Both the position numbers and the translations under genes were made by a program. This document shows positions 3,431 to 64,000 of a stretch of DNA of 64,000 nucleotides, one piece after another. Position 1 is the first letter of the stretch, and each line of letters opens with the position of its first letter. The notes beneath the pieces are model-generated. The model was not told where the DNA came from, made no database searches, and saw nothing but the letters and a program-made list of their open reading frames with translations. This DNA is from Candidatus Levybacteria bacterium RIFCSPHIGHO2_02_FULL_40_18. Its GTDB lineage: Bacteria; Patescibacteriota; Microgenomatia; Levybacterales; GWA1-39-11. Location of the stretch: the NCBI GenBank assembly GCA_001782235.1, contig MFOC01000007.1, positions 156,040-220,039 on the forward strand. Reading direction: 5' to 3'.

Positions 3431-4575
3431 ATAATTTTTCAAATAAGAAGAAACTCTTTTTGGTCCTACTTGTTCTGTTTATTTTTTCTCTCGGAGTATT
3501 TATTTTATATAAATTCTATTTCAAGCCCGATATTCAACTTAAAACCGAGAAAAAAACAGGCAATATTAATGTTTTGCTTCTTGGCAAAGCGGGCGGTCAG
3601 CATGAAGGCCCGGATTTAACAGACACCATAATTTTAGCAACTATAAATCCTCAAAAAAACGTAGTTAATCTTATCTCAATCCCAAGAGATCTCTGGATAC
3701 CGGACCTTCAAGCGAAAATCAATACAGCATATGCATATGGGCAAGAGAAAGATCGCCAGGGAAAGCTTTTAGCAAAAACGGCCGTAAGTCAGGTTACGGA
3801 AAAACAAATAGACTATGTTTTAGTTGTTGATTTCCAGGCATTCGTAGATTTGATTGATCATATCGGAGGAATTGACGTAGGTGTTAAAACAATTCTTGAT
3901 GATTATAAATACCCAATTGAAGGCCGCGAGGATGATCCTTGTGATCATACGGATGAAGAGATTATAGACCTTTCAGCCCAGATCGCCACCGGGAGCGCCT
4001 TACCAGAAGATGTATTCCCATGTAGATATAAACACATACATTTTGATGCCGGATTAGTTCATATGGACGGAGAACGAGCCCTAGAGTTTGTCCGGTCGCG
4101 CCACGGCACGAATGGTCAAGGGTCGGATTTTGCAAGAAGCATGCGACAGCAAGATGTTATTAATGCGGTAAGGGATAAGACTTTATCTTTGGGAACACTC
4201 CTTAATCCCATTAAGGTTTTAGGTGCTTTCAATATCATTCAAAACAATATTGATACGAATGCAGAGATCCGTGAGTTAGATGATTTCATAAATTTGGCAA
4301 GAAAAATTCAGGGCGCAAAAATAATAAGTACCGTAATAGACATTGGATCCGGGGAAGGACAAAGGCCAGGATTACTTATACATCCTCCCGTGTCAGAAGC
4401 GCAAAAACTTCAGTGGGTATTAATACCAAGAGTAGGAGACGGAAATTTTTCAGAAATTCATGAGTTTATAAAATGCATCGAAGAAGGATTCGAATGTAAA
4501 ATTGAAGAAGACGGCATTAGTAAGAATACCACGAGTATCAAGAGTACCAAAAGTACCAGAAATATAAAAGACTAA
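3424..4575 (+). CDS. LytR-CpsA-Psr (LCP) family cell-envelope phosphotransferase
   Basis: N-terminal TM, then NVLLLGKAGGQHEGPDLTDTIILATINP...ISIPRDLWIP...INTAYAYG...VVDFQAFVDLIDHIGGIDV, which matches LCP domain hallmarks. The last 15 codons lie in a GTATCA-type repeat. Confidence 0.8.
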   Translation: MLNNFSNKKKLFLVLLVLFIFSLGVFILYKFYFKPDIQLKTEKKTGNINVLLLGKAGGQHEGPDLTDTIILATINPQKNVVNLISIPRDLWIPDLQAKINTAYAYGQEKDRQGKLLAKTAVSQVTEKQIDYVLVVDFQAFVDLIDHIGGIDVGVKTILDDYKYPIEGREDDPCDHTDEEIIDLSAQIATGSALPEDVFPCRYKHIHFDAGLVHMDGERALEFVRSRHGTNGQGSDFARSMRQQDVINAVRDKTLSLGTLLNPIKVLGAFNIIQNNIDTNAEIRELDDFINLARKIQGAKIISTVIDIGSGEGQRPGLLIHPPVSEAQKLQWVLIPRVGDGNFSEIHEFIKCIEEGFECKIEEDGISKNTTSIKSTKSTRNIKD

Positions 4576-4587
4576 AGAAAATGGTTG

Positions 4588-4703
4588 TTGGAAATTAGAA
4601 AATAGTAATGGAGATAGGAAAATAGAAAATAGTTTAAAAACCAATTTCTAACATCTAATTTCCATTACCAATTTCTATTTTCTAATAACTAATTTCTAAC
4701 TCC
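4588..4703. repeat. Palindromic GAAATTAG/GAAAATAG/TAATGGA element, copy 1 (family also at 5866..6025 and 63908..64000)
   Basis: Left arm ggaaattagaaaatagtaatggagataggaaaatagaaaatag; right arm is its approximate reverse complement ...ctaatttccattaccaatttctattttctaat. It fills the convergent gap between the LCP gene and the 4713..6980 gene. Confidence 0.75.
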
Positions 4704-4712
4704 TGATACCTT

Positions 4713-6980
4713 TTAGTTGAGTTTATATATCTTTGTCTGCCCGACTTCAAAAACTACATCTCCGAGCTTTTCAAACTTTGCCTCGTTGATATTATTGTAT
4801 TTTTCGCGTTCAAGATTCCCGAGATAAACATATTTGATATTATGTTTTTTTAGAATCTTTTTCGTTTCGTCTAGATCGTTTGATTCGTAAATTAGTCTCA
4901 CTTCCTCAATTCGAGGTGCCGGAATATCATACGTTCCGCGCCAGAGCCATTCGTGAACTGTCCAACCAAGGACCGTCGGGAGTCCTGTGTTTGCCGATAT
5001 TCGGGCGTAATCCGTATAGGAGTCTCCCTGTGCCTCAACAATAACCGGCCTTCCCTCTATATTTTGGTTTAACCACATGATGGCTTTATAATCATCCGGG
5101 AGTCTGTCTTTCATGTAAGCGATTCCGTCAAGTCCGATAAATTTTCTTAAGTCTCCATAATAAGATTTGATTGCAAAGTAAGGATAGACGAAGACCAATA
5201 TTAAAAATAAAATAGCAAGTAGCAAATATACGTAGTAAACCCCGTTAGACCAATACCGTCTAACGGGGTAAATATTAAAAACTTTAAAACCTTTCGGTTT
5301 GAAACTTACGGCCAATCTCACAATAATATAGCCTGATGAGATTGAAAGCATGATGAAGCTTTGATAGACAAGTTTAAACATAGTGTTCGCGCGATAGTGG
5401 GCAGGATAAATGTCTTTCAAATAGATAAGTTCCGGAGTTATAATTAGTATCGAAGAAAGAAGGATCAAAAGAAAGATAAAAACATCCGAAACTTCAACTT
5501 TGAATTTCTTTTTTTGCCTCCTGATAAAAATGATAAAAGATAAAACGAAAAAGTAAAAAAATCCATAGAGCGTTAATAGTTGCCACCAGGTGCTTCTTTG
5601 GCAGTGGTCTTTTTCAAAAAGAAGTGGTCCAATTTGCCCTATATTTTCTAAAAATTTTGGGGGGCAAACCATGCCGATTCCCTGAGCAAACGGCTTAAAA
5701 TTTAAACTAAAAGGGAGCGTGAATAATACAAATAAAAAGAAGAGCGGTATTATTAACTTTGGTTTGCGAATATAAACAAAGACAAAACCGGCAAGAGCCA
5801 TATAAATTAGTCCGTCCCACGCATTAGTCATATACATAATTGCTAGCAAGAGTGCTAGCAATAAAATTCGAAATTCGAAATTCGAAGTTCTATTAAAAAG
5901 AAATTGGTTTATAGAAATTAGAAAATGGTAATAGAAATTAGATATTAGAAATTGGTATTTTTTGCTATTTTCTATTTTCCAGCTTCCATTACTAATTTCA
6001 ATTTTCTTAGAACTATTTTCCCTTCGTGGGGTTCCATGCCTTTGTATTAATAAGGCATAGAGTAGGGCGATTGTTAAGAGTACGAAAGGAATGTCGATTA
6101 CATGGCCGTGTAAATCCGATACGACAAAAGAATAAATGGGGAATTCGTGGATTGTGAAAGGTATAAATCTTGTCGCATTTGGGTACCAGTAACTATTGGG
6201 AAAAGTAGAAAATAAAAATTGTAAATTCCAAAATGGAACCGGCGCGTCAGTATTATATGAGGCAAAAAACGCATATATTGTATGAAGATTTCCAGCTAAA
6301 GCCACAATAAGGCCTGTTAGAAGTCCTCCTATAAAAGCTTTTCTCAGAGATACGACTTTAGACAAGATATTCGTCCCCAAAGAAAATGATAAGGTCAATG
6401 TAAAAGAAAATAAGGTTGCGATCATTAAGTTATATGAAACAGAGGAAGGCACAAAAGAGATTTCTGTCATAACCGCGGTCACAAGGTGTCCAAAGTAATA
6501 ATAATTTATCGGTAACGGCGGGAACCACATATCAACCGCTGGTTGCCACGTTGTTCGAAGAATCGAGTTCACAAATCCAAAATCCATGAACTTCTCAAGA
6601 CCATTAATACTTGGTTCATGCGCACGAATATAGCTCCAGAAGACAATTCCGGCAAAGAAAAGAAATTCTTCGAATAGAAAAATTTTTGCGAAGGGCTTGA
6701 GTTTATCAATCCTATGCTTTTTAAGAATAAAAATATTTCCGATAAGACAAATCCATAAAATTATTGCAAGAGAGAAAACGCCAAAAGGCAAAAGATGTAG
6801 ACTGTTGACCACAAGAATTATGTAGGAAATAATTCCAATTCCAAGAACCTTTGAGAAAAGAAATCCTCGATCCCAAAAATTCTTGAATATTAAAAAAGTT
6901 AATGGCGCAAATACTATTCCCACCAAAAAGAATGAGCCCCACCACTCTAGAATCCAAACAACTTCTTGAAAGCTAAACAT
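4713..6980 (-). CDS. Polytopic membrane protein with Chlor_Arch_YYY / DUF2298-like region (putative GT-C-like glycosyltransferase)
   Basis: Many TM helices; PINYYYFGHL motif; conserved C-terminal soluble domain (GRPVIVEAQGDSYTDYARISANTGLPTVLGWTVHEW). Contains an in-frame repeat-element-derived segment (see 5866..6025). Confidence 0.5.
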   Translation of the reverse strand: MFSFQEVVWILEWWGSFFLVGIVFAPLTFLIFKNFWDRGFLFSKVLGIGIISYIILVVNSLHLLPFGVFSLAIILWICLIGNIFILKKHRIDKLKPFAKIFLFEEFLFFAGIVFWSYIRAHEPSINGLEKFMDFGFVNSILRTTWQPAVDMWFPPLPINYYYFGHLVTAVMTEISFVPSSVSYNLMIATLFSFTLTLSFSLGTNILSKVVSLRKAFIGGLLTGLIVALAGNLHTIYAFFASYNTDAPVPFWNLQFLFSTFPNSYWYPNATRFIPFTIHEFPIYSFVVSDLHGHVIDIPFVLLTIALLYALLIQRHGTPRRENSSKKIEISNGSWKIENSKKYQFLISNFYYHFLISINQFLFNRTSNFEFRILLLALLLAIMYMTNAWDGLIYMALAGFVFVYIRKPKLIIPLFFLFVLFTLPFSLNFKPFAQGIGMVCPPKFLENIGQIGPLLFEKDHCQRSTWWQLLTLYGFFYFFVLSFIIFIRRQKKKFKVEVSDVFIFLLILLSSILIITPELIYLKDIYPAHYRANTMFKLVYQSFIMLSISSGYIIVRLAVSFKPKGFKVFNIYPVRRYWSNGVYYVYLLLAILFLILVFVYPYFAIKSYYGDLRKFIGLDGIAYMKDRLPDDYKAIMWLNQNIEGRPVIVEAQGDSYTDYARISANTGLPTVLGWTVHEWLWRGTYDIPAPRIEEVRLIYESNDLDETKKILKKHNIKYVYLGNLEREKYNNINEAKFEKLGDVVFEVGQTKIYKLN
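5866..6025. repeat. Palindromic GAAATTAG/GAAAATAG element copy embedded in-frame inside CDS 4713..6980
   Basis: aaattcgaaattcgaaattcgaag...gaaattagaaaatggtaatagaaattag...tttttgctattttctattttccag...ccattactaatttc. It shares a 22-nt exact block (ctggaaaatagaaaatagcaaaaa, reverse complement) with the 63908 copy. It is translated as ENSSKKIEISNGSWKIENSKKYQFLISNFYYHFLISINQFLFNRTSNFEFRI. Confidence 0.7.
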
Positions 6981-12786: not shown

Positions 12787-14059
12787 TAAAAATGAACTCG
12801 GATATTTTTTGTCCAAGTTCGACCGCATAATTCGTACCCCTATCCCAGGGGTAGACCTGTTGAATGTTGGCAAGATAAACATTTGGGAGCGGAGTTTCAG
12901 GCGGCGGAATAATTTTTGAATAATTCGTGGGAATGATTGGTTGAGCAAAGGGGGCCTTAAACAATTTATAATTTATAATTGATAATTTATAATTTGGGTT
13001 AATCTTTCGGAGCCAGGGATCGTAGAGCTTGAGAAGTTCGTCTTCAGTCATTTTGAAGCGAGGATCATCTTGTTCGACATAATTCCCTAAATATATAATG
13101 TGTTCATTATTGTAATGTTCATTGTCAATAAAATTTGTGTGTTCAACAATTGCAAGAATTGGAGATTTAGCATCACAAACGCTCAGCCAATAAGTGCCGT
13201 CTGTTAAAAACTGTTTTTTTAAGCGAAGCATTAGATTTAAAGCGCCCAAAGATTTAAGCTTCAAAAGATTTTTTTTATAATCAGCAGGAAGTTGCGGGGC
13301 AATTTTTATAAAGAAAAAAGACGGTAAAGTTACAGTTACCGAATCGAACTCATGATCTTTAACTTTTGACTTTTGACTTATAATTTTGACTTTTGACTTT
13401 TGACTTTTGAGTTCTGTGACTTCGGTATTGTAGTAAAATTTTCCGCCCTTTTTTTCGACCTCTTTTTGTAAATGTTCGGCAAAGCTCAAGAATCCACCTT
13501 CAGGGTAGGCAAGACTTTCGGTTCGTTTATAAACTCGGGCCCAGAACCAAGCAAGCGAAACATCGCCAGCATATTTTCCTAACTTATTCTGCATCAAAGG
13601 TTTCCAGATTTTTAGGTATGCATCTTTCCCCATTGATAGTTCAAGATAGCTTTGCGCGCGAAATCGCTCAAGAGGGCGCCATACGGGATTGTAACGAAGA
13701 GCGGCAAGGGACGCCCCCATTCGAACTCTATCTAAAAAGCCAATTTTTGGGAATTTTAAAAGAGACGTAGGAGAGTCGAGTTGAAAAATTCCGCCATCAA
13801 CAAAGGAGGACGTTTTGGGACGTCGGATTATGACTTTATGGTTAATATCATTTGCCAGTTTTAAAACGCTTTTGTCATTTGTGAACCAATGATGATAATG
13901 TTTTTCCAAAGACCAGTCCCATTCCTTCTCGCGATATCCGACTGCCAAACCCCCTGGTTTTTCATCCTTCTCGAAAACTGTAACATCGTACCCTTTTTGT
14001 GCCAAATAATATGCCGCTGAAAGTCCCGTAAACCCCGCTCCAATAATTCCAATTTTCAT
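12779..14059 (-). CDS. FAD/NAD(P)-binding oxidoreductase (amine oxidase / protoporphyrinogen-oxidase-like fold)
   Basis: MKIGIIGAGFTGLSAAYYLAQKGYDVTVFEKDEKPGG, a Rossmann GxGxxG-x17-E dinucleotide motif. ATG 14059 is preferred over the track TTG at 14092. Contains two in-frame heptamer-repeat segments. Confidence 0.7.
   Translation of the reverse strand: MKIGIIGAGFTGLSAAYYLAQKGYDVTVFEKDEKPGGLAVGYREKEWDWSLEKHYHHWFTNDKSVLKLANDINHKVIIRRPKTSSFVDGGIFQLDSPTSLLKFPKIGFLDRVRMGASLAALRYNPVWRPLERFRAQSYLELSMGKDAYLKIWKPLMQNKLGKYAGDVSLAWFWARVYKRTESLAYPEGGFLSFAEHLQKEVEKKGGKFYYNTEVTELKSQKSKVKIISQKSKVKDHEFDSVTVTLPSFFFIKIAPQLPADYKKNLLKLKSLGALNLMLRLKKQFLTDGTYWLSVCDAKSPILAIVEHTNFIDNEHYNNEHIIYLGNYVEQDDPRFKMTEDELLKLYDPWLRKINPNYKLSIINYKLFKAPFAQPIIPTNYSKIIPPPETPLPNVYLANIQQVYPWDRGTNYAVELGQKISEFIFNV
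12963..12996. repeat. ATAATTT heptanucleotide tandem repeat inside the oxidoreductase CDS
   Basis: ataattt ataattg ataattt ataattt; encodes KLSIINYKL. Confidence 0.7.
13362..13417. repeat. TTTTGAC heptanucleotide tandem repeat (about 8 units) inside the oxidoreductase CDS
   Basis: acttttgacttttgacttataattttgacttttgacttttgacttttgag; encodes SQKSKVKIISQKSKVK. The same TTTTGAC unit recurs intergenically at 53417..53470. Confidence 0.8.
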
Positions 14060-23951: not shown

Positions 23952-23953
23952 AC

Positions 23954-24106
23954 GCTCGTGTACATTTTTCTCAGACCCGCTCGGTAAGTTATTAGTTTAT
24001 TAATGTTATCCTCCCTTCGCTAAATGAAAATCGCATATTCACTTTAGTCTATATGTAATATTTTTCTTGAGCGATTTTCAGTTGTCTTCGAAAAATGTAC
24101 ACTTTG
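23954..24106 (+). repeat. ~155-bp MITE-like / structured element, copy 2
   Basis: Terminal inverted repeats cgtgtacatttttc / gaaaaatgtacac (13 bp perfect), with inner stem gaaaatcgc / gcgattttc. Exactly fills the convergent gap between the lepA stop (23951) and the stop of gene 24110..25309. Confidence 0.8.
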
Positions 24107-24109
24107 CGC

Positions 24110-25309
24110 CTAAAGGGCTAGGAGGGCGAGTCCGGCGACTATTGTCAGGATTATTGCCCCGATTATGCCAATAGTTTTTGCTACCTCCCCGGGCGGCGGA
24201 ACAGTTGGAGCAGTTGTTGGAACAGCTGTAGGGGAGGATGTTAGCGTACTTGTTGGGGTGAGCTGGCCGGATGATGTGCCTGTTGGCGTTGGCGCCGCCC
24301 CGGTGGGGCTCTGCCCCGGAGGGGGCGCGGTCGTAGCAGATCCTGCCGCTGTTGCCGTTATTGTTTGAGTACATGCAGTTGAAATCTTACCTCCATTATC
24401 CGTAAATACCGCTGTTGCGCCAAATGTTCCCGCAGACTGATATGTATGATTAGTTTGAATAGTAGCGGATTTTTGTCCAAGACCCTCCGTTATATCCTGA
24501 ATACTTCCATCGCCAAAGTTAAAAGATGCTTTTGTTAAGGTTCCGGCTGCGTCTGGATCATTGCCTTTGGCGGTTAGGGAAACTGAGAAAGGGGCGCTGC
24601 CTGTGACAGAAGGACTTACAGATAATTCTGTACAGAGAGGTGCTTGATTTGCAGTGCCTGTTGGAACAGTAGTGGGTGCGCTTGTTGGTGAGATTGTGCC
24701 AGTTGGCTGGGTTCCTGTAGGTGTCACAGTAGGTGTGACGGTTCCGCCAGTTGTACAGGCGTCAGACCCTATAGTTACATTTGCCGTAGAGACTTGAAAC
24801 AATACATTTTCGGTTGGTTCATCAGCCGGCGCCAGAGAGAAAACACGAGATTTCTCCGAGTCAAATGATATCTGTGCGCTTCCTGCTGCTTTTGGACGGA
24901 AGGTAACCGTGGCAACCTTTGAGACTACTTGTACGGCCCGTGTGACATCTGCTCCAACAGAGACGGACATATTTGCTTCTCCGCTTGAGACGCTGACCGG
25001 TCTCACTACTGTTGAAAAACTATCACTTTCTTTAATTTGTAGGACATCAAGTTTGGTAGGATCATATTTAAGGTAAAAATCAACTATAGAAACAATATTA
25101 GAGCTGGGATCGAGCATGATATCAACATTGAAATTTTGACATTGAGTTGAAGTATTTACATTTTCAGGACTAAAGGTGAGTTTTGAAGAAGGAGCGGCAC
25201 GACTTCGCAGTTCTTGTTGTCTTTTAATAAAAAAGAGAGTGAGGGGAATGCTTATCAAAAGCAACAATAAATTCCCAAGTATAAAATACCTGTTGGTTAA
25301 AATTTTCAT
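24110..25309 (-). CDS. Membrane-anchored surface protein with PKD-like domain and Thr/Pro/Gly-rich linkers
   Basis: N-terminal TM; NFGDGSIQDITE...HTYQSAGTFGATAVFTDNGG (PKD-like); C-terminal TM anchor. Contains GC-rich 35-nt motif copy A at 24291..24325. Confidence 0.5.
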   Translation of the reverse strand: MKILTNRYFILGNLLLLLISIPLTLFFIKRQQELRSRAAPSSKLTFSPENVNTSTQCQNFNVDIMLDPSSNIVSIVDFYLKYDPTKLDVLQIKESDSFSTVVRPVSVSSGEANMSVSVGADVTRAVQVVSKVATVTFRPKAAGSAQISFDSEKSRVFSLAPADEPTENVLFQVSTANVTIGSDACTTGGTVTPTVTPTGTQPTGTISPTSAPTTVPTGTANQAPLCTELSVSPSVTGSAPFSVSLTAKGNDPDAAGTLTKASFNFGDGSIQDITEGLGQKSATIQTNHTYQSAGTFGATAVFTDNGGKISTACTQTITATAAGSATTAPPPGQSPTGAAPTPTGTSSGQLTPTSTLTSSPTAVPTTAPTVPPPGEVAKTIGIIGAIILTIVAGLALLAL

Positions 25310-33321: not shown

Positions 33322-34256
33322 TCAAACATTACTATTATATCTTAAAATTGCTTAGGCCTAGGCAGTGGATCAAAAATTTCGCCCTTTTCACAGCGCTTGT
33401 TTTTGGAGGTCAACTGTTTGAAATAGGCCCATTGATACAAGTTTTTTTAGGGTTTATCTCCTTTTGTTTACTTGTATCATCAACGTACATTATAAACGAT
33501 ATCTTGGATTTAAAAAAAGACAGGCTTCATCCTTTTAAAAAAGCAAGACCTATTGCAAGCGATAAAGTAAGCGTTCGCGAGGCAACGATAATATTTATAG
33601 CAATACTTGCTTTAGCTCTTTTTATTGCAAGAGGGGTGGGCGATGGGTTTTTCTTAATTTCGCTTCTTTATCTTGCTCTTCAAATGTTATATTCTTTTGT
33701 CTTTAAGTCAATTGAGATATTTGACATTTTTTTCATTGCGGCTGGTTACATTTTGCGAGTTTATGCCGGGGAGATGATAACCGGATATCATCTTTCGGTT
33801 TGGCTACTCTTGACCACAATTTCGCTTTCCATGTTTTTGGCAATTGGAAAACGACGGTCTGAACTTACGCTTCTGGCAAACTATGCAGGCGTACGGGCAG
33901 CAGAAATTAGGCAAAGCCTTTCTCATTACTCTGAGCCTTTGCTCGCTGCCTTTATTATCATATTTGCTACATCAACTTTTATTTTCTATTCGTTCTTTAC
34001 GTTCCTTGAAAATCCTCAAGGTCCAAGATTAAGTATTGATTTTTTCCCAGATGTTCTACCATATTATCTTCAAAGAAAATGGCTAATGGTGACTATTATT
34101 CCCGTAGTTTATGGTCTGATGCGATATCTTCAGGATATTTATGAAAAACAGGAAGGGGAAAGCCCTGATCGCGTCCTTTTGTCGGATAGGTCTTTACTTG
34201 CCTCAGTTATAATTTGGGGACTTCTCGTAATAGTCATTATTTATTTTATTCCGTAG
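33318..34256 (+). CDS. UbiA-family prenyltransferase (decaprenyl-phosphate phosphoribosyltransferase-like)
   Basis: RPRQWIKNFALF...YIINDILDLKKDRLHPFKKARPIASDKVS carries the NDxxDxxxD motif; about 8 TMs. Confidence 0.75.
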   Translation: MIKHYYYILKLLRPRQWIKNFALFTALVFGGQLFEIGPLIQVFLGFISFCLLVSSTYIINDILDLKKDRLHPFKKARPIASDKVSVREATIIFIAILALALFIARGVGDGFFLISLLYLALQMLYSFVFKSIEIFDIFFIAAGYILRVYAGEMITGYHLSVWLLLTTISLSMFLAIGKRRSELTLLANYAGVRAAEIRQSLSHYSEPLLAAFIIIFATSTFIFYSFFTFLENPQGPRLSIDFFPDVLPYYLQRKWLMVTIIPVVYGLMRYLQDIYEKQEGESPDRVLLSDRSLLASVIIWGLLVIVIIYFIP

Positions 34257-35136
34257 CCTGTTCGAGGCTCGCATATTGTTTGCTCACCCAGCCGAGCGTT
34301 CCGTCCTCAAGTTCTATTTGAAACCAGCTTGCATTTTCATCAACAAAAAGATAAGATTCTCCGGGATTTACGCGACTAATCTCCTGTGATGCAGTTGAAG
34401 GGTTTTCTCTCACTCTTAAAAATCCTACGGGCGTATTTTTGATTGTTACTTGCGGTTGATTTGCTTCTGTTGGGGAGGGTATCGGGGCGCCGCCCCGGAG
34501 GGACTCTGCCCCGGAGGGTGTGGACGTAGGTTCTAAGGTTTCATCGGCTGTACCTTGCGTTCCCAATATCACATTAAGAACCAGCTTATAAGAGGGAACC
34601 GCTCTTACTCTTACTGTCTTTTTTGAAAAGCCCTGCTTTTGAATTTCTATTTCGTGTTCTGAAGGAGAAATAGAGTTTTGCGAAAGAGGCGTAATTCCTT
34701 CTTCCCTTCCATCAATTGAAACAAGCGCGCCATCAGGGATAGACGCAACAAAAAGTTGCGGGTCGCTCGAATTGGTTTTTTCAAGCGCCAAAATATATGA
34801 GGAGGCATATGCCCCTGGCAAAAAAGTTCGCTCAACTGCCGTTAATACTCCGGAATTTATTCTAACGCGCGACATAAACGGTTCAACATTTTTATCATCT
34901 GGCACTATTTTTAATTCGTATACTCCTGCATTTAGCGTATCGTGTTGCTCACAACGACATAAAGGAGTTTGTCCTAATGGTTTATTATCAAGAAAAACCT
35001 GCGCCTTTATATTCGATGTGACTTGAAGGGCTCCTTTTCCGGCAGGCACAAGCGTATTTGCCGCAATCCTAACCAAAAGAAACATTCCGGCAAGAATTAA
35101 AATAATCGCAACAACAAGAAGAATTCTTCTTTTCAT
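34246..35136 (-). CDS. PEGA-domain protein with C-terminal SH3b-like domain
   Basis: N-terminal TM; ALQVTSNIKAQVFLDNKPLGQTPL and SIPDGALVSIDGREEGITPL (PEGA-like); C-terminal WFQIELEDGTLGWVSKQYA (SH3b-like). Contains GC-rich motif copy B at 34486..34518. Confidence 0.5.
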   Translation of the reverse strand: MKRRILLVVAIILILAGMFLLVRIAANTLVPAGKGALQVTSNIKAQVFLDNKPLGQTPLCRCEQHDTLNAGVYELKIVPDDKNVEPFMSRVRINSGVLTAVERTFLPGAYASSYILALEKTNSSDPQLFVASIPDGALVSIDGREEGITPLSQNSISPSEHEIEIQKQGFSKKTVRVRAVPSYKLVLNVILGTQGTADETLEPTSTPSGAESLRGGAPIPSPTEANQPQVTIKNTPVGFLRVRENPSTASQEISRVNPGESYLFVDENASWFQIELEDGTLGWVSKQYASLEQATE

Positions 35137-36749: not shown

Positions 36750-36799
36750 ATATGAATTATACCCGAGCCTATGAGGCTAAACAAGCCTCATGGGAAGAG

Positions 36800-36880
36800 T
36801 ACCACGGGTATCAAGAGTACCAAAAGTATCAAGGGCTCTTACTTTTCGAATGTAGTCTAATGATCTAGATAATTAGATTA
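36800..36880. repeat. GTATCA-heptamer + TAGTCTAAT-palindrome intergenic element (family also at 4525..4570 and 58232..58296)
   Basis: agagtaccacgggtatcaagagtaccaaaagtatcaag ... gtagtctaatgatctagataattagattagaca. It is near-identical to accacgagtatcaagagtaccaaaagtacc at 4531-4562 and is related to gggtatcacgagtatcacgg...tagtctaataattcagatcattagact at 58232-58296. Confidence 0.6.
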
Positions 36881-36894
36881 GACATAATTCGTTT

Positions 36895-51440: not shown

Positions 51441-53452
51441 GGTGAATAGTTGACAGTAACGTCATTTAATACTGGTGCCGCATATACATCGGTGGTAGAA
51501 AAATATGCTTTATACTTAAAGCAGCGTCCTGGATTAACATACCCTTGCGCGTTTGTAAGAAGAGGAATAGCAGACGAGGTTGCAAAGAACGTGTTTGAAG
51601 TTCCGTCCGGCCCCACAAAATAATAAGAGGAATTAGTGCAGCTTCCACCAACATCGGAAGCCACAGCTACTTGAAGCTCCAAATTTGTTCCCAAAGGCTC
51701 AATGAAATTAGGAATAATTCTGTTGTAGGCAACACTTGATCCTGCGTCAAAAGGGCCTGAGACAAAAGTGCCTGAAGTTGTATATTCTCCTCCGGGTCCG
51801 CCTTCAATAACCTTGAGCTCCAAAGGAGCATCCCCGGTGACAATATATGAATAGGCGTCTCCATCTGCTTCAAGAACTGATGCGCTGTCATTAATGCCAA
51901 AGTTCATCTGCATTCCTCCGCATCTGACAGGACTTGCTTCTGTTGAGATATCAATAACCTGATATTCTTCGCCTCCCTGTCCAATAACAACTGCCCGATT
52001 CCCGGGTACAATTTCAACGGCTTTAAGATTAACAGAAGTCCCGGCATTATAAGTGCCTAAATCCGGACAATCACTGCAATTTTTGTTTGTAGTGTTAATT
52101 ATGAAAAATTCGGGCAGTGTGGATGAAGCATCTGTAACAAGATAGGCTCTTGTCGCATCGGAGTTCATGTAAACATCTCTTGCTGCCTCTCCATTTACAT
52201 CTGCCCATCCAACTCGAGTTATGCTGGCCGGGTTTGAGATATTGAAAATCTCAAGTTCTCTTACGTGTCCCGCAATCGAGACAAATGCATAATTTCCCGA
52301 AACCACAACAGACGTTCCGGTCGCAGAGATTGCCGCGCCATCCGGGTCAATTGCGGGACAAGAGCCAGTTCGATTTCCTCCGCTACAGGTGGCAAGATTG
52401 AAATTTCTAAGTCTATTCCCTTGTGTCATATAGCCGGTGTTGCCCACTATAAAAACACTATTTGTGTCGGTATTTCCGAACGCATCAAAGTATCCCGATT
52501 CGGAATATGGAAGGGTAGCCATGTTAATAATAACTATCTCCTTAGAATTCGTGTCTGTTCCTATATATCCATAATTACCTTCTATATAAACATCATTTGT
52601 TTTATAACCGTTAAATGTTCCCGAAATTGTAGCGACAGGTGGATCGGTATTTGTGACGGCAATATCGGCAAGGGATACTCCGGAAGAGTTTTCTCCTGTT
52701 CCTGCCAAGATGCGGCCTTCATATGCCGAGACGGCATTTGCTACTCCACTTTTGGGAAGATCAAGATCTTCGACAATGTACTGATTAGGATTACACCAGT
52801 CACCGCCTCCTCCCGCGCCTAGAGTGACCTCGCCTCCATTGGTGTTTGTAACTATGGTACCCGATAGAGTTCCCGAATTAAAATCGGACTCTGAAGTTTG
52901 CGTAAAAATAGTGTTGTTAAGATAACGAGTTAAATACATGGTCGAGGTGACCCCTGATGGGTATGGAGTATTCCAGGAAACAGTGATAACGCTCTTTTTA
53001 GTTGATGGATCAAGCGTTCCGCTTTCGACAAGATATCCATTAGAATCTCGGTAAGCATCACTTATCGTGATTTGACGCGCGTAGCCGTTAATTGTTTCGC
53101 TTCCTGAGATAAGCTGCCATGAAGGCCCGGATCCTTGAGGATGATAAGTTCCATTTGTTTCAACTTGCGACCAGCTTGTTTCGCGGATTACACGTAAAGC
53201 TTCCTGACCCTCACGCAAAAGCCCCGTTGCCTCAAGTCTCTGCGCATTTTGCGCTTTTCCCTCTCGTGATGCCACAAGCCCTGTTATGAGTCCTGGCAAA
53301 ACAAGCGAGGCAAAGGCCAGAGCCACCAGAAGTTCCACCAATGCCTGTCCATTGTGGCTTCGCCACAATTTTAAAGTTAAAAGTTTAAAGTTAAAAGTTT
53401 TTAAAGAGAAGCTATAATTTTGACTTTTGAATTGTAATTTTGAATTTTGCAT
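51437..53452 (-). CDS. Large (about 640-670 aa) pilin-like protein, candidate minor pilin / tip adhesin
   Basis: HNG|QALVELLVALAFASLVLPGL prepilin-like N-terminus followed by a large beta-rich domain. The true start is probably the in-frame TTG at 53369..53367 (leader MWRSHNG) rather than the track ATG at 53452, which would translate the upstream tandem repeats. Confidence 0.55.
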   Translation of the reverse strand: MQNSKLQFKSQNYSFSLKTFNFKLLTLKLWRSHNGQALVELLVALAFASLVLPGLITGLVASREGKAQNAQRLEATGLLREGQEALRVIRETSWSQVETNGTYHPQGSGPSWQLISGSETINGYARQITISDAYRDSNGYLVESGTLDPSTKKSVITVSWNTPYPSGVTSTMYLTRYLNNTIFTQTSESDFNSGTLSGTIVTNTNGGEVTLGAGGGGDWCNPNQYIVEDLDLPKSGVANAVSAYEGRILAGTGENSSGVSLADIAVTNTDPPVATISGTFNGYKTNDVYIEGNYGYIGTDTNSKEIVIINMATLPYSESGYFDAFGNTDTNSVFIVGNTGYMTQGNRLRNFNLATCSGGNRTGSCPAIDPDGAAISATGTSVVVSGNYAFVSIAGHVRELEIFNISNPASITRVGWADVNGEAARDVYMNSDATRAYLVTDASSTLPEFFIINTTNKNCSDCPDLGTYNAGTSVNLKAVEIVPGNRAVVIGQGGEEYQVIDISTEASPVRCGGMQMNFGINDSASVLEADGDAYSYIVTGDAPLELKVIEGGPGGEYTTSGTFVSGPFDAGSSVAYNRIIPNFIEPLGTNLELQVAVASDVGGSCTNSSYYFVGPDGTSNTFFATSSAIPLLTNAQGYVNPGRCFKYKAYFSTTDVYAAPVLNDVTVNYSP

Positions 53453-53470
53453 TATGAATTTTTAATTTAA
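53370..53470. repeat. Two adjacent 7-nt-periodic tandem repeat arrays (AAAGTTA/AAAGTTT and TTTTGAC/TTTTGAA) between pilin genes
   Basis: ttaaagttaaaagtttaaagttaaaagttttt ... aattttgacttttgaattgtaattttgaattttgcattatgaatttttaattt. Confidence 0.75.
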
Positions 53471-56713: not shown

Positions 56714-56808
56714 AAGACAGACGCCTAATTAAACGCCTACATTTATCATACAATAGGTCGAATTTAGATGCTAGATCTTGGATGATAGATATTAGATAAT
56801 AATTAAAA

Positions 56809-57207
56809 GTGAAAAGGTTAATAAATAGTTTCGATAAGTTAAAAGCGTGGCAAGAGGCTCATAAATTAGTAGTTATGATCTATAAGGTAACAACTAGTTT
56901 TCCGAAACATGAAATGTATAGATTAACAGATCAGCTATGTCGATCAGCAAGTTCGATCGCGGCAATTTTGGTTGAGGGTAATTCGCGAGGTTCAAGAAAA
57001 GAGTATATTCATTTCGTTTTCCAAGCAAGAGCATCCTTAGAAGAACTTAAGTATCACCTTCTACTGGCAAAAGACCTAGGTTATTTAGATGAAAGCTTAT
57101 ATAATAAGTTAATGGCACAGGTAGATTTGGTTGGGAAACTAATTAATGGCCTACTTCGATACTTAAAATCTAGTAGAAATGTCCAATATCCAAAATCTAA
57201 TATCTAA
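56809..57207 (+). CDS. Four-helix-bundle protein (TIGR02436; 23S rRNA intervening-sequence protein / DGR Avd-like family), standalone
   Basis: FDKLKAWQEAHKLVVMIYKVTTSFPKHEMYRLTDQLCRSASSIAAILVEGNSRGSRKEYIHFVFQARASLEELKYHLLLAKDLGYL matches the family consensus. Confidence 0.8.
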   Translation: MKRLINSFDKLKAWQEAHKLVVMIYKVTTSFPKHEMYRLTDQLCRSASSIAAILVEGNSRGSRKEYIHFVFQARASLEELKYHLLLAKDLGYLDESLYNKLMAQVDLVGKLINGLLRYLKSSRNVQYPKSNI

Positions 57208-57224
57208 TATCTAATATCAAAATT
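57186..57224. repeat. CTAATAT heptanucleotide tandem repeat between the four-helix-bundle gene and the dehydrogenase gene
   Basis: atatccaaaat ctaatat ctaatat ctaatat caaaatt. Confidence 0.7.
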
Positions 57225-58226
57225 ATGAAGTTTGCGTGTTTTGAACTACAAGACTGGGAAGAGGATTATCTTAAAGAAAAATTCGGAAACACCGTTGACA
57301 TCTCGTTCCATTCGGAGGAATTAAATATTGAGAATGTTCCGGCCGTAAAAGATGCGGATGGAATTGTGGTGTTCATCTATTCGACTATCGATAAACAAGT
57401 TCTTGACCTGATGCCTAATCTGAAATTTATCGCAACTATGTCAACGGGATTTGACCATATTGATATTGAGGAGTGTAAAAGACGAAACATTATCGTATCA
57501 ACTGTTCCGACATACGGAGAGAATACCGTCGCAGAACACGCTTTTGCTCTAATTTTTGCCATATCACGAAGATTGATTGAGTCCCATAATAGAGTTTCCG
57601 AAGGAAATTTCTCACCAACAGGGCTTACGGGGTTCGATCTTTTTGGAAAAACTTTAGGGGTGATTGGGGTTGGAAATATTGGCTCGCATGTTATCCGAAT
57701 CGCCAAAGGGATTGGCATGGATGTTTTAGCTTATAAACGAACGCCGGATCCAAAACTTGCAGCTGATCTTGGGTTCCGTTTTGTATCTATGGACGAGTTG
57801 CTTTCTCAATCAGATATAATTTCAGTTCATGTTCCATACAATAAAGAAACACATCACATGCTAAATAGCGATGCATTTTCTAAAATGAAGGATGGCGTTG
57901 TGATTATAAACACTGCACGAGGGGCAATTATTGATACAACGGCATTAGTTTCAGCGCTTCAAAGCGGAAAAGTTGCGGCCGCAGGACTCGATGTTCTTGA
58001 AGAAGAATCAATTATTCGCGAGGAACATGAGCTTTTGCACAAAGAGTTTCCGATTGAAGATTTAAAAACAGTTCTTGAAAACCACATGCTCTTAAATAAT
58101 CCAAAAGTTGTGATTACTCCCCATAATGCCTTCAACAGCCGTGAGGCCCTGATGCGAATATTGCGGATCACCGAGGAGAACATCAACGGCTTCCTCGCGG
58201 GCCAACCTAAGAATTTGGCCTTCTAA
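57225..58226 (+). CDS. D-isomer-specific 2-hydroxyacid dehydrogenase (D-lactate dehydrogenase-like)
   Basis: NAD-binding GVIGVGNIGSHV; catalytic region VHVPYNKETHHML...INTARGAIIDTTALVSAL...GLDVLEEE. Confidence 0.85.
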   Translation: MKFACFELQDWEEDYLKEKFGNTVDISFHSEELNIENVPAVKDADGIVVFIYSTIDKQVLDLMPNLKFIATMSTGFDHIDIEECKRRNIIVSTVPTYGENTVAEHAFALIFAISRRLIESHNRVSEGNFSPTGLTGFDLFGKTLGVIGVGNIGSHVIRIAKGIGMDVLAYKRTPDPKLAADLGFRFVSMDELLSQSDIISVHVPYNKETHHMLNSDAFSKMKDGVVIINTARGAIIDTTALVSALQSGKVAAAGLDVLEEESIIREEHELLHKEFPIEDLKTVLENHMLLNNPKVVITPHNAFNSREALMRILRITEENINGFLAGQPKNLAF

Positions 58227-58231
58227 CAGAA

Positions 58232-58296
58232 GGGTATCACGAGTATCACGGGGAAGTTTTTGTGCCTAGTCTAATAATTCAGATCATTAGACTTGA
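58232..58296. repeat. GTATCA-heptamer + TAGTCTAAT-palindrome element at the left edge of the GC-rich island
   Basis: gggtatcacgagtatcacgg ... tagtctaataattcagatcattagact. Same family as 36800..36880. Confidence 0.55.
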
Positions 58297-58390
58297 GGTG
58301 AAGATGGAAGCGCTCTGTTTGTGAATTTGTTTCCGAATAAAATCGGAATTCGCCAAAAGGCGAAAGAGCGCTTCCGGATCGACACGGATG

Positions 58391-58915
58391 TTACCTTCTG
58401 ATGCCGTTGATGAGCATTTCGGGCGACGGGTCTTGCCAAGGGCTGTTGTCGAACGCGACAGTTGCGACGTATCCTGCGATGCACAGTACGCAGAACGTGA
58501 CTACCCATGGGTCGGAGTGGAACTTGGTGATGATGAGAATCCCGCTCCAGAGCACAAGGTAGAATAGCACGGCAAACATGGCAGTGTGCCAGATTTGGCT
58601 CGGAAGCCAAGAAATTGCCGCTTCGCGTCCAGGCGCCGATCTTGTCTCGATCGCAATCGAGATGACGAGTCCTACTATGAGTAGTGTGACGTGCCAGTAG
58701 AAGTTGCCTTGAAGCCCAGTAACATCTTTGTCCTGGATTAGTATTGCTGCACCCACACCGTAAAGAGCGAGTAGAATGTCGCCTACCTTGAATGACCACC
58801 AGCGTGTCCAGTAGAAATGCCCTTCCCAGATAACCCTGATGTAGAGGATTGCGCCCCATTGGATCGCGAGCATAAAAAGTCCGGCCTCGACAGGGCTGTT
58901 CCAGATTGGGAGCAT
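58391..58915 (-). CDS. Polytopic (about 5 TM) membrane protein of unknown function, encoded in a ~52% GC island
   Basis: A hydrophobic, sensible 174-aa ORF. The overlapping 277-aa Arg/Cys-rich ORF at 58287..59120 is judged a spurious frame of the same GC-rich DNA. Confidence 0.4.
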   Translation of the reverse strand: MLPIWNSPVEAGLFMLAIQWGAILYIRVIWEGHFYWTRWWSFKVGDILLALYGVGAAILIQDKDVTGLQGNFYWHVTLLIVGLVISIAIETRSAPGREAAISWLPSQIWHTAMFAVLFYLVLWSGILIITKFHSDPWVVTFCVLCIAGYVATVAFDNSPWQDPSPEMLINGIRR

Positions 58916-58975
58916 GAGTTCCCTCCTTGCAAGGTGGATTCATGGTTCGATCTTGCCTCACCATGCCTTGTACCG

Positions 58976-59335
58976 CTAGTCTTCGGCCTCCATTCCGGCA
59001 ATACCGAAGAGAACCAAAATTGCCAAGAGGATCAAGCCAAGTAATGCGGCCATCACCACTAGCACAGGCTCTCCTGTCAAGATGAAAGACGGTATTCCGA
59101 TCAGTGCTATAATCACCCATATCACTACAGTCGCTATGGTAAGAAGCGGATAGGACTTCAGCATTTTCTGCAAGCCATCCCTAACGAGATCGGTAACTCC
59201 CCAAACAAAGAAAATCAGGAAGCTGATAGCGTTGATCATGATTCTTCCTTTCTTTTGTCGCGATGCGACTGATACTTTGATCCGTGTCGATGTCAAAGAG
59301 CCAAGAGTCTCGATACCTCGCCATAGGCGGGCCAC
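58976..59335 (-). CDS. Small (3 TM) membrane protein of unknown function in the GC-rich island
   Basis: Likely starts at the internal Met (MINAISFLIFFVW…). A TTGCCC-17-TATAAT promoter candidate sits on the minus strand at 59350-59385. Confidence 0.3.
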   Translation of the reverse strand: MARLWRGIETLGSLTSTRIKVSVASRQKKGRIMINAISFLIFFVWGVTDLVRDGLQKMLKSYPLLTIATVVIWVIIALIGIPSFILTGEPVLVVMAALLGLILLAILVLFGIAGMEAED

Positions 59336-59439
59336 ACAGCTATTGTGTGTTTACGAGAAGCTTTCTCAAGGGCTGTATTATACTCTTCGACTTCGCTCAG
59401 GGCAAACCAAAACTATAAGGTGAGGGAGTTGGGGAAAGA

Positions 59440-59865
59440 CTATAGCTGTTTTACGTCGTCCTCGATGCCTTTAAGATCGGTCTCAGGGCTTCCAAGATCG
59501 ATTGTTTCTATATCTTCTTCAGAAAGCGGCGTGGGCGTTGGTGTTAGCGTGGGCGTTGGAACCTGTGTAGGGGCCGGAGTTACCTGTGCGTTGTTCTGAT
59601 TATTAAGCTGAGTTGCCAAGAAATAAGTTACCCCAAGAACTATAAGCAAAAGAATTCCAACTGCAATAAATAAAACCATTTTACTGTTCGGCGGCATGGC
59701 AGGCCCTCCTTGACTTGCGGGTGGTGTGAGGGGAGCAGTCGGTTGAGGAGGTGTTGGCGCCGCCCCGGAGGGGCTCTGCCCCGGAAGGGGTGGTGCGGGC
59801 GGAACGTTTCCCACAGGCACAGTGGGATTGTCAAGAGTTTGATTTTGTGGTTGATTTGGGTCCAT
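59440..59865 (-). CDS. Pro-rich single-TM protein, hypothetical
   Basis: PPAPPLPGQSPSGAAPTPPQPTAPLTPP ... TM ... TPAPTQVPTPTLTPTPTP. Contains GC-rich motif copy C at 59756..59790. Confidence 0.35.
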   Translation of the reverse strand: MDPNQPQNQTLDNPTVPVGNVPPAPPLPGQSPSGAAPTPPQPTAPLTPPASQGGPAMPPNSKMVLFIAVGILLLIVLGVTYFLATQLNNQNNAQVTPAPTQVPTPTLTPTPTPLSEEDIETIDLGSPETDLKGIEDDVKQL

Positions 59866-59866
59866 A

Positions 59867-60511
59867 TTATATGTTAGCTGAGCCTGTTGCCGTATTATCT
59901 TCGCCGCGAAGCTTTGCCGCTTCCATTATTGCTTTCATAACGGCTTGTTTTGCATCAACAATCAGCTTGTGCACTGCCTGAATGTCCAATCGGAACTGTG
60001 AAACCATTTGACCAATAGTATTTCGCAATGTTGATTCATCCGTAATATTTGCCGTATATTCTTTTGATTTTTGAGCATCAACTGCATTTTTCGCTGTCGT
60101 AATTGCGTTTGCCGCTGTCGTAATTGCCGCGTCGAGCGCCGTTGTGTCTTTCCCTTGTGCTTTGAAAGCTGCCGCCTTTTCCGTTACTCTATTAAGAATA
60201 TCTGTCAAATGATCCAATGCTTTATCCATTTTGTTAGTTAATCTTGCGTTTGCGCTTGCTACTTTATCAGCAATTCTCTCGGTAAGCAGCTGTTTTCTAG
60301 TATCTTTAATAGCTCTGATTTGGGATTTAAAAGCCTCCATTTTTTCTTTCATTTGTTCGCGTGTGTCCTGAACAAACTCTCGGCGATCCTCTTTTAAATT
60401 TATCAATCGATCGCGAGTTGTTTGGGGTGATGAGGTCGCGGTTTGAGCACCTATAGTTTTAGGATTAAATATTACGGCAATAAAGATTATTAGAACCAAG
60501 AATTTTCCCAC
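59867..60511 (-). CDS. Secreted alpha-helical / coiled-coil protein, hypothetical
   Basis: Signal peptide MGKFLVLIIFIAVIFNPKTIGAQT followed by heptad-rich helical sequence. Confidence 0.35.
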   Translation of the reverse strand: MGKFLVLIIFIAVIFNPKTIGAQTATSSPQTTRDRLINLKEDRREFVQDTREQMKEKMEAFKSQIRAIKDTRKQLLTERIADKVASANARLTNKMDKALDHLTDILNRVTEKAAAFKAQGKDTTALDAAITTAANAITTAKNAVDAQKSKEYTANITDESTLRNTIGQMVSQFRLDIQAVHKLIVDAKQAVMKAIMEAAKLRGEDNTATGSANI

Positions 60512-63907: not shown

Positions 63908-64000
63908 ATTAGAAATTAGTTTTTGGAAAATAGAAATTAGTAATGGAAAGTGGAAAATAGAAAATAGCAAAAACAAAAACCAATTTCCAATTTCAAGTTT
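63908..64000. repeat. Palindromic GAAATTAG/GAAAATAG/TAATGGA element, copy 3 (truncated by window end)
   Basis: ttagaaattagtttttggaaaatagaaattagtaatggaaagtggaaaatagaaaatagcaaaaacaaaaaccaatttccaatttc. Shares extended identity with the copies at 4588 and 5866. Confidence 0.7.

Follow-up and report, generated by a model that had tools for sequence, protein, structure and literature searches.

A GC-rich membrane-protein operon of Candidatus Levybacteria resembles a recently acquired island but appears to owe its composition to a heritable trait of its gene family

Atypical GC content and codon usage are commonly read as proving that a gene was transferred recently, surveys of the Patescibacteria included. 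Here we describe such a stretch, positions 58296-59440 of a 64,000-nt segment (hereinafter the window; positions 156,040 to 220,039 of contig MFOC01000007.1, assembly GCA_001782235.1) of Candidatus Levybacteria bacterium RIFCSPHIGHO2_02_FULL_40_18, which holds a minus-strand operon of two membrane-protein open reading frames (ORFs), ORF87 and ORF174. A sequence-only reading of the window had proposed it as a candidate recent horizontal acquisition of a small membrane-protein module such as a holin-like, immunity or transporter-accessory pair. In common with composition-defined genomic islands, it deviates abruptly in GC and codon usage over about 1.1 kb, carries non-core genes of unknown function, and lies at a locus where gene content differs between sister species and toxin-antitoxin modules occur. 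Unlike such islands, the operon has no integrase, tRNA or att-like repeat, it occupies the same locus in another species with a divergence like that of its flanks, and the deviation recurs in about 20 diverged homologues, so that it belongs to the family rather than to one transfer event.

Other described systems also invite comparison. Type I toxin mRNAs such as hok are coding mRNAs controlled by folding back on themselves, with conserved internal structure. The ORF174 family likewise specifies a hydrophobic membrane product, its sister clades show conserved sense-strand pairing with compensatory changes, and many of its members start with a weak TTG or GTG; unlike hok, the product is a five-helix protein of 170-200 aa rather than a peptide with fewer than 60 residues, neither an antisense RNA nor an antitoxin was identified, each fold is specific to its clade, and the window copy has an ATG, a strong ribosome-binding site (RBS) and no excess structure. 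GtrA-like proteins are small polytopic membrane proteins encoded in envelope-polysaccharide or peptidoglycan loci, and ORF174 is of similar size, has several helices and belongs to a family with neighbours of the glycosyltransferase, Wzy_C, Mur ligase, PAP2, DedA and MreBCD types; nevertheless, it shows no profile or fold similarity to these or other described families, and it has five helices and an Asp/Ser/His signature of its own. Holins (Phage_holin_4_2, PF04020) are also small polytopic membrane proteins, and in the sister species the orthologue has such a PF04020 gene two genes upstream. No endolysin or phage gene, however, lies near the operon, and the PF04020 gene of the sister species, itself AT-rich, is missing from the window.

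On balance, with slightly better than even confidence, we favor the interpretation that selection acting on nucleotides or RNA maintains the GC-rich composition as a lasting trait of the family. The operon would then be an old resident of its lineage, present at its locus before the two Levybacteria species diverged, and the use of C- and G-ending codons would be a heritable trait of the gene family. The GC excess would most likely be caused by selection on the transcript, for stability or for throttled translation, which we propose because the coding regions of sister clades carry conserved, sense-strand-specific base-pairing.

The 58296-59440 unit has a GC content of 0.503, as against 0.389 for the window mean and 0.365 and 0.374 for the flanks, and in a sliding scan of 1145 nt (peak 0.507 at 58344, standard deviation 0.038) it is the GC-richest stretch of its size in the window. 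The island as first noticed is thus real, with its figures of 52% against 36% to be read as about 50% against 37-39%; a value of 0.52 is reached only in the core at 58300-59100. The excess lies at third codon positions: GC at positions one, two and three (GC1/2/3) is 0.53/0.42/0.65 in ORF174 and 0.51/0.31/0.58 in ORF87, while GC3 is 0.20-0.42 in every other ORF of at least 80 aa in the window. The earlier remark that the two genes favor G/C-ending codons is upheld, and the unit shows the deviating, foreign-looking composition and codon usage expected of an island. This GC-rich zone coincides with one self-contained minus-strand transcription unit, which would run from a promoter through a leader of about 130 nt, the 87-aa hydrophobic peptide and the 174-aa five-helix membrane protein to a branched terminator hairpin (Table 1). 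The expected fall of GC near 59440 was not seen: raw GC stays at 0.45-0.58 until about 59900, because the adjacent gene (59440-59865), coding for a Pro/Ala/Gly-rich protein and hereinafter called the Pro-rich gene, is GC-rich at positions 1 and 2 (GC1/GC2 0.65/0.49). With a GC3 of 0.42, at the upper end of the range of other genes, and paralogues at two other sites of the window, this gene was rejected as a part of the island; its GC reflects amino-acid composition and is outside the anomaly.

A hypothetical protein recorded for Candidatus Levybacteria of the Rifle aquifer has exactly the sequence of ORF174, whose close relatives form four clusters. A profile search among 1.84 billion representatives recovered 78 clusters (50% identity; E <=0.001), 30 of them with E from 6e-101 to 1e-10. 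The members, of about 160-220 aa, share the motifs E-x3-Y-x2-RWWSF-x2-GD and PS-x3-H-T (in ORF174, E31-x3-Y-x2-RWWSF-x2-GD46 and PS106-x3-H110-T, the second at the start of helix 4), in which D46, S106 and H110 are near-invariant across 66 sequences. An AlphaFold2 model based on this 66-sequence alignment shows five long helices (pLDDT 95, pTM 0.89), and the ratio of nonsynonymous to synonymous divergence (dN/dS) against orthologues is 0.07-0.13, both of which speak for a coding gene; the five helices agree with the roughly five membrane segments predicted from the sequence alone. ORF174 displays every feature by which we define the family, namely a length of about 170-200 aa, five helices, the RWWSF-GD loop and helix start, and the PSxxxH motif. 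The RWWSF loop, Asp46, Ser106 and His110 appear to cluster at one membrane face, probably the cytoplasmic one, to judge from the distribution of positive charges. No match was found in Pfam across 37 members or among the NCBIfam models, and none in the PDB by either sequence or fold. The members come from genomes of Patescibacteria (Woykebacteria, Levyibacteriota and others), and ORF174 represents a rare, undescribed family found almost only in that group. A record titled Candidatus Nanoarchaeia (L014, DASVHF010000034.1; loci are given by L numbers) carries bacterial mreB, mreC and mreD, and its label is apparently wrong, as those of two Patescibacteria-like metagenome-assembled genomes titled 'uncultured Gammaproteobacteria' (L012, L013) also look to be. 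In a distant subfamily the gene lies directly after a Mur ligase gene (L006 5001-5573; L008 5001-6023) and is AT-shifted, with a GC of 0.40 in a 0.58 host and 0.47 in a 0.55 host; one member of this subfamily is fused to a soluble C-terminal extension of about 140 aa, giving 340 aa.

The supposed recency of the acquisition is not supported by comparison with a sister Levybacteria species (GCA_964365755.1; loci L001 and L012), which carries the 174-aa gene at the same locus. The common gene order is a SurA-like gene, a PD-(D/E)XK nuclease, a 214-220-aa protein, the Pro-rich protein, the 174-aa gene, the 2-hydroxyacid dehydrogenase and PilB, and in a third relative the 174-aa gene is also found beside the dehydrogenase. 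Between the window and L001 the gene is 83% identical in protein and 79% in DNA, the flanking genes being 77-79% identical in DNA; the proportion of differing synonymous sites (pS) is 0.638 for ORF174 (dN/dS 0.068), 0.64 for PilB (dN/dS 0.045) and 0.79 for the dehydrogenase, whose dN/dS is not computable as its synonymous divergence is saturated. Both promoter hexamers are identical in L001, within a block of 72% identity, and so is the outer stem of the 3' hairpin, whose two inner hairpins differ in sequence and keep the same shape, with a U-run after them. The same locus and the flank-like divergence in the sister species, together with the third relative, therefore place the operon before the species divergence. 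The sister orthologue is still GC-rich (0.51, GC3 0.54) in a genome of 0.39 GC. Presence/absence polymorphism among close relatives, the mark of a recent gain, was not found: the gene is present in all 10 places listed from the 20 contigs of its own population, in the second species and in the third relative. Among the matches listed, the same operon arrangement occurs in 10 places from 20 independent contigs bearing the ORF174 protein, which excludes an assembly artefact.

What stands of the proposed horizontal acquisition is the foreign-looking composition, the non-core nature of the genes (78 clusters for the family, and ORF87 without a homologue) and the variable locus; what finds no support is the recency and the use of GC as evidence of transfer. 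As the close relatives show neither AT-rich orthologues nor a core gene, a transfer at an earlier time has still to be weighed. It would take the form of an old acquisition with incomplete amelioration, in which a GC-rich cassette from a donor of about 55-60% GC entered an ancestor of the Levybacteria and has slowly drifted to host GC; in a wider form, other Patescibacteria would have independently gained related cassettes, often at the same integration hotspots. We regard this as unlikely, though well worth setting against the family-trait interpretation. Frequent horizontal transfer has been reported among Patescibacteria (PMC12455944), and the sharp GC3 contrast confined to one transcription unit, as well as the rare and patchy occurrence of the family, speak for such an event. 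The locus itself is a hotspot of gene-content change, which also favors it: the sister-species inserts (L001 8636-10263; L003 547-1307) hold a Phage_holin_4_2 gene, a 312-aa gene without a family assignment and a Gp49/HTH HigBA-like toxin-antitoxin pair, and dispersed repeats are present. Against it, an integrase, a tRNA and direct repeats flanking 58296-59440 are all absent, the unit consisting only of the two membrane ORFs, and the bordering repeat is a dispersed intergenic element, also found elsewhere and in the sister species, rather than a signature of insertion.

The same GC excess is seen at about 20 distinct loci, where the family gene has a GC of 0.51-0.58 and a GC3 of 0.54-0.75 as against 0.37-0.45 in far flanks or hosts. 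In the averaged profile, GC climbs at the start codon, from 0.40-0.45 to 0.50-0.55, and is about 0.42 again within 100-200 nt past the stop. The GC-rich copies comprise five or more clades, with only 27-40% identity between them (homologues overall, 27-68%), and four-fold degenerate sites are near random, being 20-50% identical between pairs and lowest for the most diverged pairs. Thus, the GC excess appears to be a heritable gene-family trait that has persisted after saturation of synonymous sites, and atypical GC shared by independent Patescibacteria homologues loses its value as evidence of transfer. The exceptions are an AT-rich native clade, L040 and L043 (GC 0.34), one clade of intermediate GC (0.48), and the distant subfamily, whose GC matches the host or deviates in the opposite direction. 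An old acquisition would have the gene GC spread from donor to host, and it is instead tight at 0.51-0.58 despite identities of 30-68% and the synonymous saturation. Likewise, in three lineages whose MreB proteins are 62-78% identical, the family gene lies between a Wzy_C/TPR gene and mreBCD, and the family protein, at 57-68% identity, is of the same order as the flanking proteins, lineage pairs ranking broadly alike; such parity with flanking core proteins across deep divergences argues against the old acquisition. Polarised synonymous changes summed over 12 lineages number 87 GC>AT versus 51 AT>GC, where neutral decay predicts about 3.8:1, and the window lineage is without net decay (5-6 GC>AT versus 7 AT>GC). 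For the near subfamily, scans of 185,579 species genomes and 241 million metagenome records, made with a narrow family alignment which limited their reach, turned up no long contig of matching GC that could be the donor; the only contig of uniform composition is that of L005, 1.5 kb long and 51% GC throughout.

Base-pairing within the coding sequence (CDS) was assessed as a z-score of folding against synonymous-codon shuffles for single sequences, and against codon-column shuffles for alignments. The single-CDS values are -6.2 (L036), -5.3 (L048), -4.3 (L032), -3.0 (L017), -2.5 (L005), -2.1 (L001), +0.4 (the AT-rich L043) and +1.5 (the window copy). In the clade of the Wzy/mreB loci, eight diverged members have a consensus fold of -75.8 kcal/mol versus -32.6 +/- 4.9 when shuffled (z -8.8), with 29 compensatory pairs versus 17.4 +/- 3.7; by a pair-counting tool, there are 25 double-change pairs versus 12.1 +/- 2.3 in shuffles and 6-10 in slid controls. 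The reverse complement of this alignment reaches only -31.1 kcal/mol against -75.8 for the sense strand. The three syntenic loci alone give a z of -11.0, while neighboring mreB, as a control in the same genomes, gives +0.05 and +0.45. Such conserved, strand-specific structure across the CDS of a cellular, non-viral gene, with z of about -9 to -11 and neighbors at about 0, is unusual. Elsewhere the clade alignments give -3.9 (L017/L045/L046), -3.0 (L047/L048/L029), -2.3 and -3.2 (window clade, three and six sequences), +0.4 (AT-rich clade) and -1.3 (distant subfamily). Hence, structure and GC excess go together across clades, and the fold is clade-specific; in some predicted folds the start region pairs with the 3' part of the CDS. 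Conserved sense-strand structure implies selection on the nucleotide sequence, which counts further against an old acquisition.

Could the GC-rich segment be a non-coding structured RNA gene, with the ORFs fortuitous? In an AT-rich genome a GC-rich island is classically an RNA gene, the 3' region of the operon is very strongly folded (-63.9 kcal/mol as a whole, z = -9.6), and sister clades have conserved structure across the region. We hold this explanation to be very improbable, and as the sole explanation it is excluded by the coding evidence of ORF174. The dN/dS of 0.07-0.13 comes with saturated synonymous sites, the GC of the codon positions is patterned as in coding sequence, and both ORFs have Shine-Dalgarno sites (GGAGG for ORF174, AGGAAG for ORF87). 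Moreover, the protein is conserved down to 25% identity with invariant polar residues, and its AlphaFold2 model has the high pLDDT given above. Rfam 15 has nothing at gathering score in the window, with only chance-level matches in 57800-60000, and nothing at E <=1 in five related loci. An alternative 277-aa frame over ORF174 (58287-59120, minus strand) is open in the window, L005 and L014 and broken in L001, L013 and L015; it is spurious, arising from the C/G-ending codons of a hydrophobic protein.

Several observations weigh against a trait maintained by selection on the transcript. The window copy is itself without excess mRNA structure, the signal of its clade is weak, and a sister-clade fold moved onto the window gene was rejected, as 42% of cells were paired versus 42% in slid controls. 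Structure as the full cause of the GC excess was also rejected: in the structured clade, unpaired third positions are GC-rich too (0.62 versus 0.69 for paired ones), and structure alone therefore leaves the composition partly unexplained. The L001 lineage is decaying towards AT, with 15 GC>AT versus 3 AT>GC, and its GC3 is 0.54 versus 0.65 in the window, as an old acquisition would have it. The 72%-identical homologue L005 lies on the uniformly GC-rich contig mentioned above, and distant members match or mismatch their hosts both ways, an opposite mismatch (a GC of 0.40 where the host has 0.58) being a sign of transfer. The family gene also tends towards variable spots with toxin-antitoxin modules, so the shared synteny could reflect shared integration hotspots, and the function proposed below is read from gene neighborhoods. 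Finally, GC-rich DNA reaches beyond ORF174 into ORF87, into neighboring small ORFs or non-coding stretches (L015, L036, L035, L031), and into the 3' end of the dehydrogenase gene, whose last 34 or so codons have a GC3 of 0.76-0.79 versus 0.26-0.44 in the remaining gene. In the sister species this end shows a weaker rise (GC3 0.54), though three genes separate the dehydrogenase from the GC-rich operon there. Such a spill is more suggestive of a regional effect, or of an imported segment, than of selection on a single CDS, and that several islands hold GC-rich, non-homologous companions again suits an old acquisition.

A regional effect of another kind would be GC-biased gene conversion at a recombination hotspot, raising GC irrespective of gene function; in bacteria, GC3 has been proposed to be linked to recombination (bioRxiv 10.1101/011023, also PMC4450053). 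The spill of the excess into non-coding spacers (0.48-0.53), ORF87 and the end of the dehydrogenase gene (GC3 0.79) is in line with it, as is the structural variability of the locus between species. However, such an effect would have to track the gene family through many chromosomal contexts, the toxin-antitoxin genes of the same hotspots are AT-rich (0.29-0.39), the averaged GC profile tracks the CDS boundaries, and strand-specific compensatory base-pairing is not predicted by it, for which reasons we consider it improbable.

Returning to selection on the transcript, we offer more tentatively a wider reading: a Patescibacteria-wide membrane-protein family may be kept GC-rich, and in several clades extensively base-paired in the mRNA, by selection, and so form stable 'pseudo-islands' that resemble transfer in AT-rich genomes. 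Were this true, the transcript would be doubly constrained, as a protein code and as an RNA structure, which might hold a dose-sensitive membrane protein at a very low rate of translation or give the mRNA an unusually long life, and the window operon would be a member that has retained the composition and relaxed the fold. Composition-based callers would then miscall the family in many genomes.

The second gene of the operon, ORF87, has a codon-position GC typical of coding sequence and is called as 87 aa on independent contigs; with its roughly three membrane helices it fits the predicted three-segment protein of about 90 aa. Outside its own population no homologue was found, its sole database match being itself. 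In L001 it is replaced by an unrelated hydrophobic ORF of 58 aa, and small hydrophobic ORFs are found in the same position in L005 (39 aa), L047 (52 aa) and L048 (32 and 54 aa). A small hydrophobic ORF thus lies directly upstream of the family gene in five lineages, the window included, which lends the 'pair' of the sequence-only reading some reality; the sequences of these small ORFs are not conserved. ORF174 might therefore work with a fast-evolving small hydrophobic partner. Elsewhere the family gene is accompanied by extra GC-rich small ORFs (L035 1326-1781; L031 3358-3786; L036 3785-4797 and 5761-5994; L015 4420-5750), one of which codes for a sigma-70 region-4/HTH protein and has its start overlapping the stop of the family gene. 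These accompanying ORFs are not homologous between genomes, and in a tblastx comparison of nine islands nothing was shared except the family gene.

The recurrent neighbors of the family gene are Mur ligase, Wzy_C/TPR proteins, MreBCD, FemAB, GT2, GT4, WecG, PAP2, DedA, penicillin-binding proteins and histidine kinases. On this basis we propose a role for the family in cell-envelope biogenesis, which its gene neighborhoods make probable. A well-folded five-helix family with an Asp/Ser/His signature recurs beside genes for peptidoglycan, polysaccharide and lipid carriers in a group whose envelope biology is largely unknown. The roles suggested earlier found no backing. For a holin or phage lysis module, there is no holin match in Pfam or PHROGs, where the only match is an insignificant one (best E 0.012), to a family that has no known function, no relative in 2.9 million viral contigs and no endolysin neighbor, the adjacent genes being the dehydrogenase and the Pro-rich membrane protein. 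For an immunity, CPBP (Abi, PF02517) or anti-phage role, none of the 37 members has a Pfam match, no PADLOC model matches ORF174 or ORF87, and no bacteriocin gene is adjacent; a transporter-accessory role likewise finds no match in Pfam or NCBIfam. A phage origin was rejected, given the lack of viral-contig relatives and of any meaningful result from PHROGs and PADLOC.

Table 1. Features of the GC-rich transcription unit and its low-coordinate border, in window coordinates
Feature	Position (strand)	Description	Basis
2-hydroxyacid dehydrogenase, 3' end	58125-58226 (+)	convergent neighbor, outside the operon	GC3 by segment
Dispersed repeat	58232-58296 (.)	9-nt periodic GGTAYCAnG motif and hairpin AGTCTAAT..ATTAGACT at 58260-58293	repeat families D3, I8
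Branched (Y-shaped) 3' hairpin	58306-58375 (-)	11-bp outer stem GGAAGCGCUCU/AGAGCGCUUCC around two small hairpins	
ORF174	58391-58915 (-)	174-aa five-helix membrane protein	
Intercistronic spacer	58916-58975 (-)	GGAGG RBS 58922-58926, 6 nt (58916-58921) ahead of the ORF174 start; GC 0.53	
ORF87	58976-59239 (-)	87-aa hydrophobic protein, ~3 membrane helices	ORF list, translation
5' leader, ~130 nt	59240-59376 (-)	GTAAAyACACA..TGTGT hairpin, CTCTTTGACATCGACACGGA and GTCGCnTCGCGAC kept in L001; AGGAAG RBS	alignment with L001
Promoter candidate	59377-59405 (-)	sigma-70-like; -35 TTGCCC 59405-59400, 17-nt spacer, -10 TATAAT 59382-59377	consensus scan

The promoter motif of the sequence-only reading is present, about 25 nt higher than the 59350-59385 at which it had been placed; promoter-like sites in the region number 2 versus 2.1 expected, that is, without enrichment over chance. 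As a structured element the leader drew no support, its fold stability not being significant (z -1.7 in the window, +0.9 in L001). The nested hairpins at the 3' end, by contrast with the promoter, were found just as described earlier, and the 94-nt region that holds them (58297-58390) folds at -39.9 kcal/mol (z -7.3); the branched hairpin is a probable terminator or stabiliser of the mRNA 3' end. The dispersed repeat noticed at the low-coordinate edge of the unit is also real: its periodic motif occurs 4 times versus 0.13 expected, and it sits between two convergent genes. Further copies, intergenic or at gene ends, lie at 4513-4567 and 36786-36887 of the window and at 9627-9669 of L001 (88% identical), and the element may be a terminator or a protein-binding array. 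No tRNA or tmRNA was found in the window.

The window holds other repeats. A GC-rich 41-nt stretch, GGCGCCGCCCCGGAGGGGCTCTGCCCCGGA, is present in three copies, 78-93% identical (24285-24325, 34480-34520 and 59750-59790), each within a different Pro-rich ORF (24110-25309, 34246-35136 and 59440-59865, respectively), which suggests that these ORFs are paralogues and code for a small family of membrane-anchored proteins. The other GC peaks of the window are due to them, through codon positions 1 and 2 only. AT-rich short-period repeats of the TTAGATCT, TTTTGAC and AGAAAATAG types are dispersed between genes (217-259, 1462-1490, 4576-4699, 5899-6020, 13330-13427, 53398-53467, 56764-56792, 57190-57219 and 63909-63973), some of them forming long inverted pairs. 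The pair at 56764-56792 and 57190-57219 brackets a gene for a 23S-rRNA-IVP/bAvd-like four-helix bundle (56809-57207), which is absent from the equivalent position in the sister species, where a 785-aa AAA+/ClpB-like gene is found instead. Lastly, two copies of a segment about 150 nt long lie at 2520-2666 and 23953-24095 (90-98% identical), both being intergenic beside the start or end of a gene; the segment may represent a small mobile element or a regulatory region common to both places.

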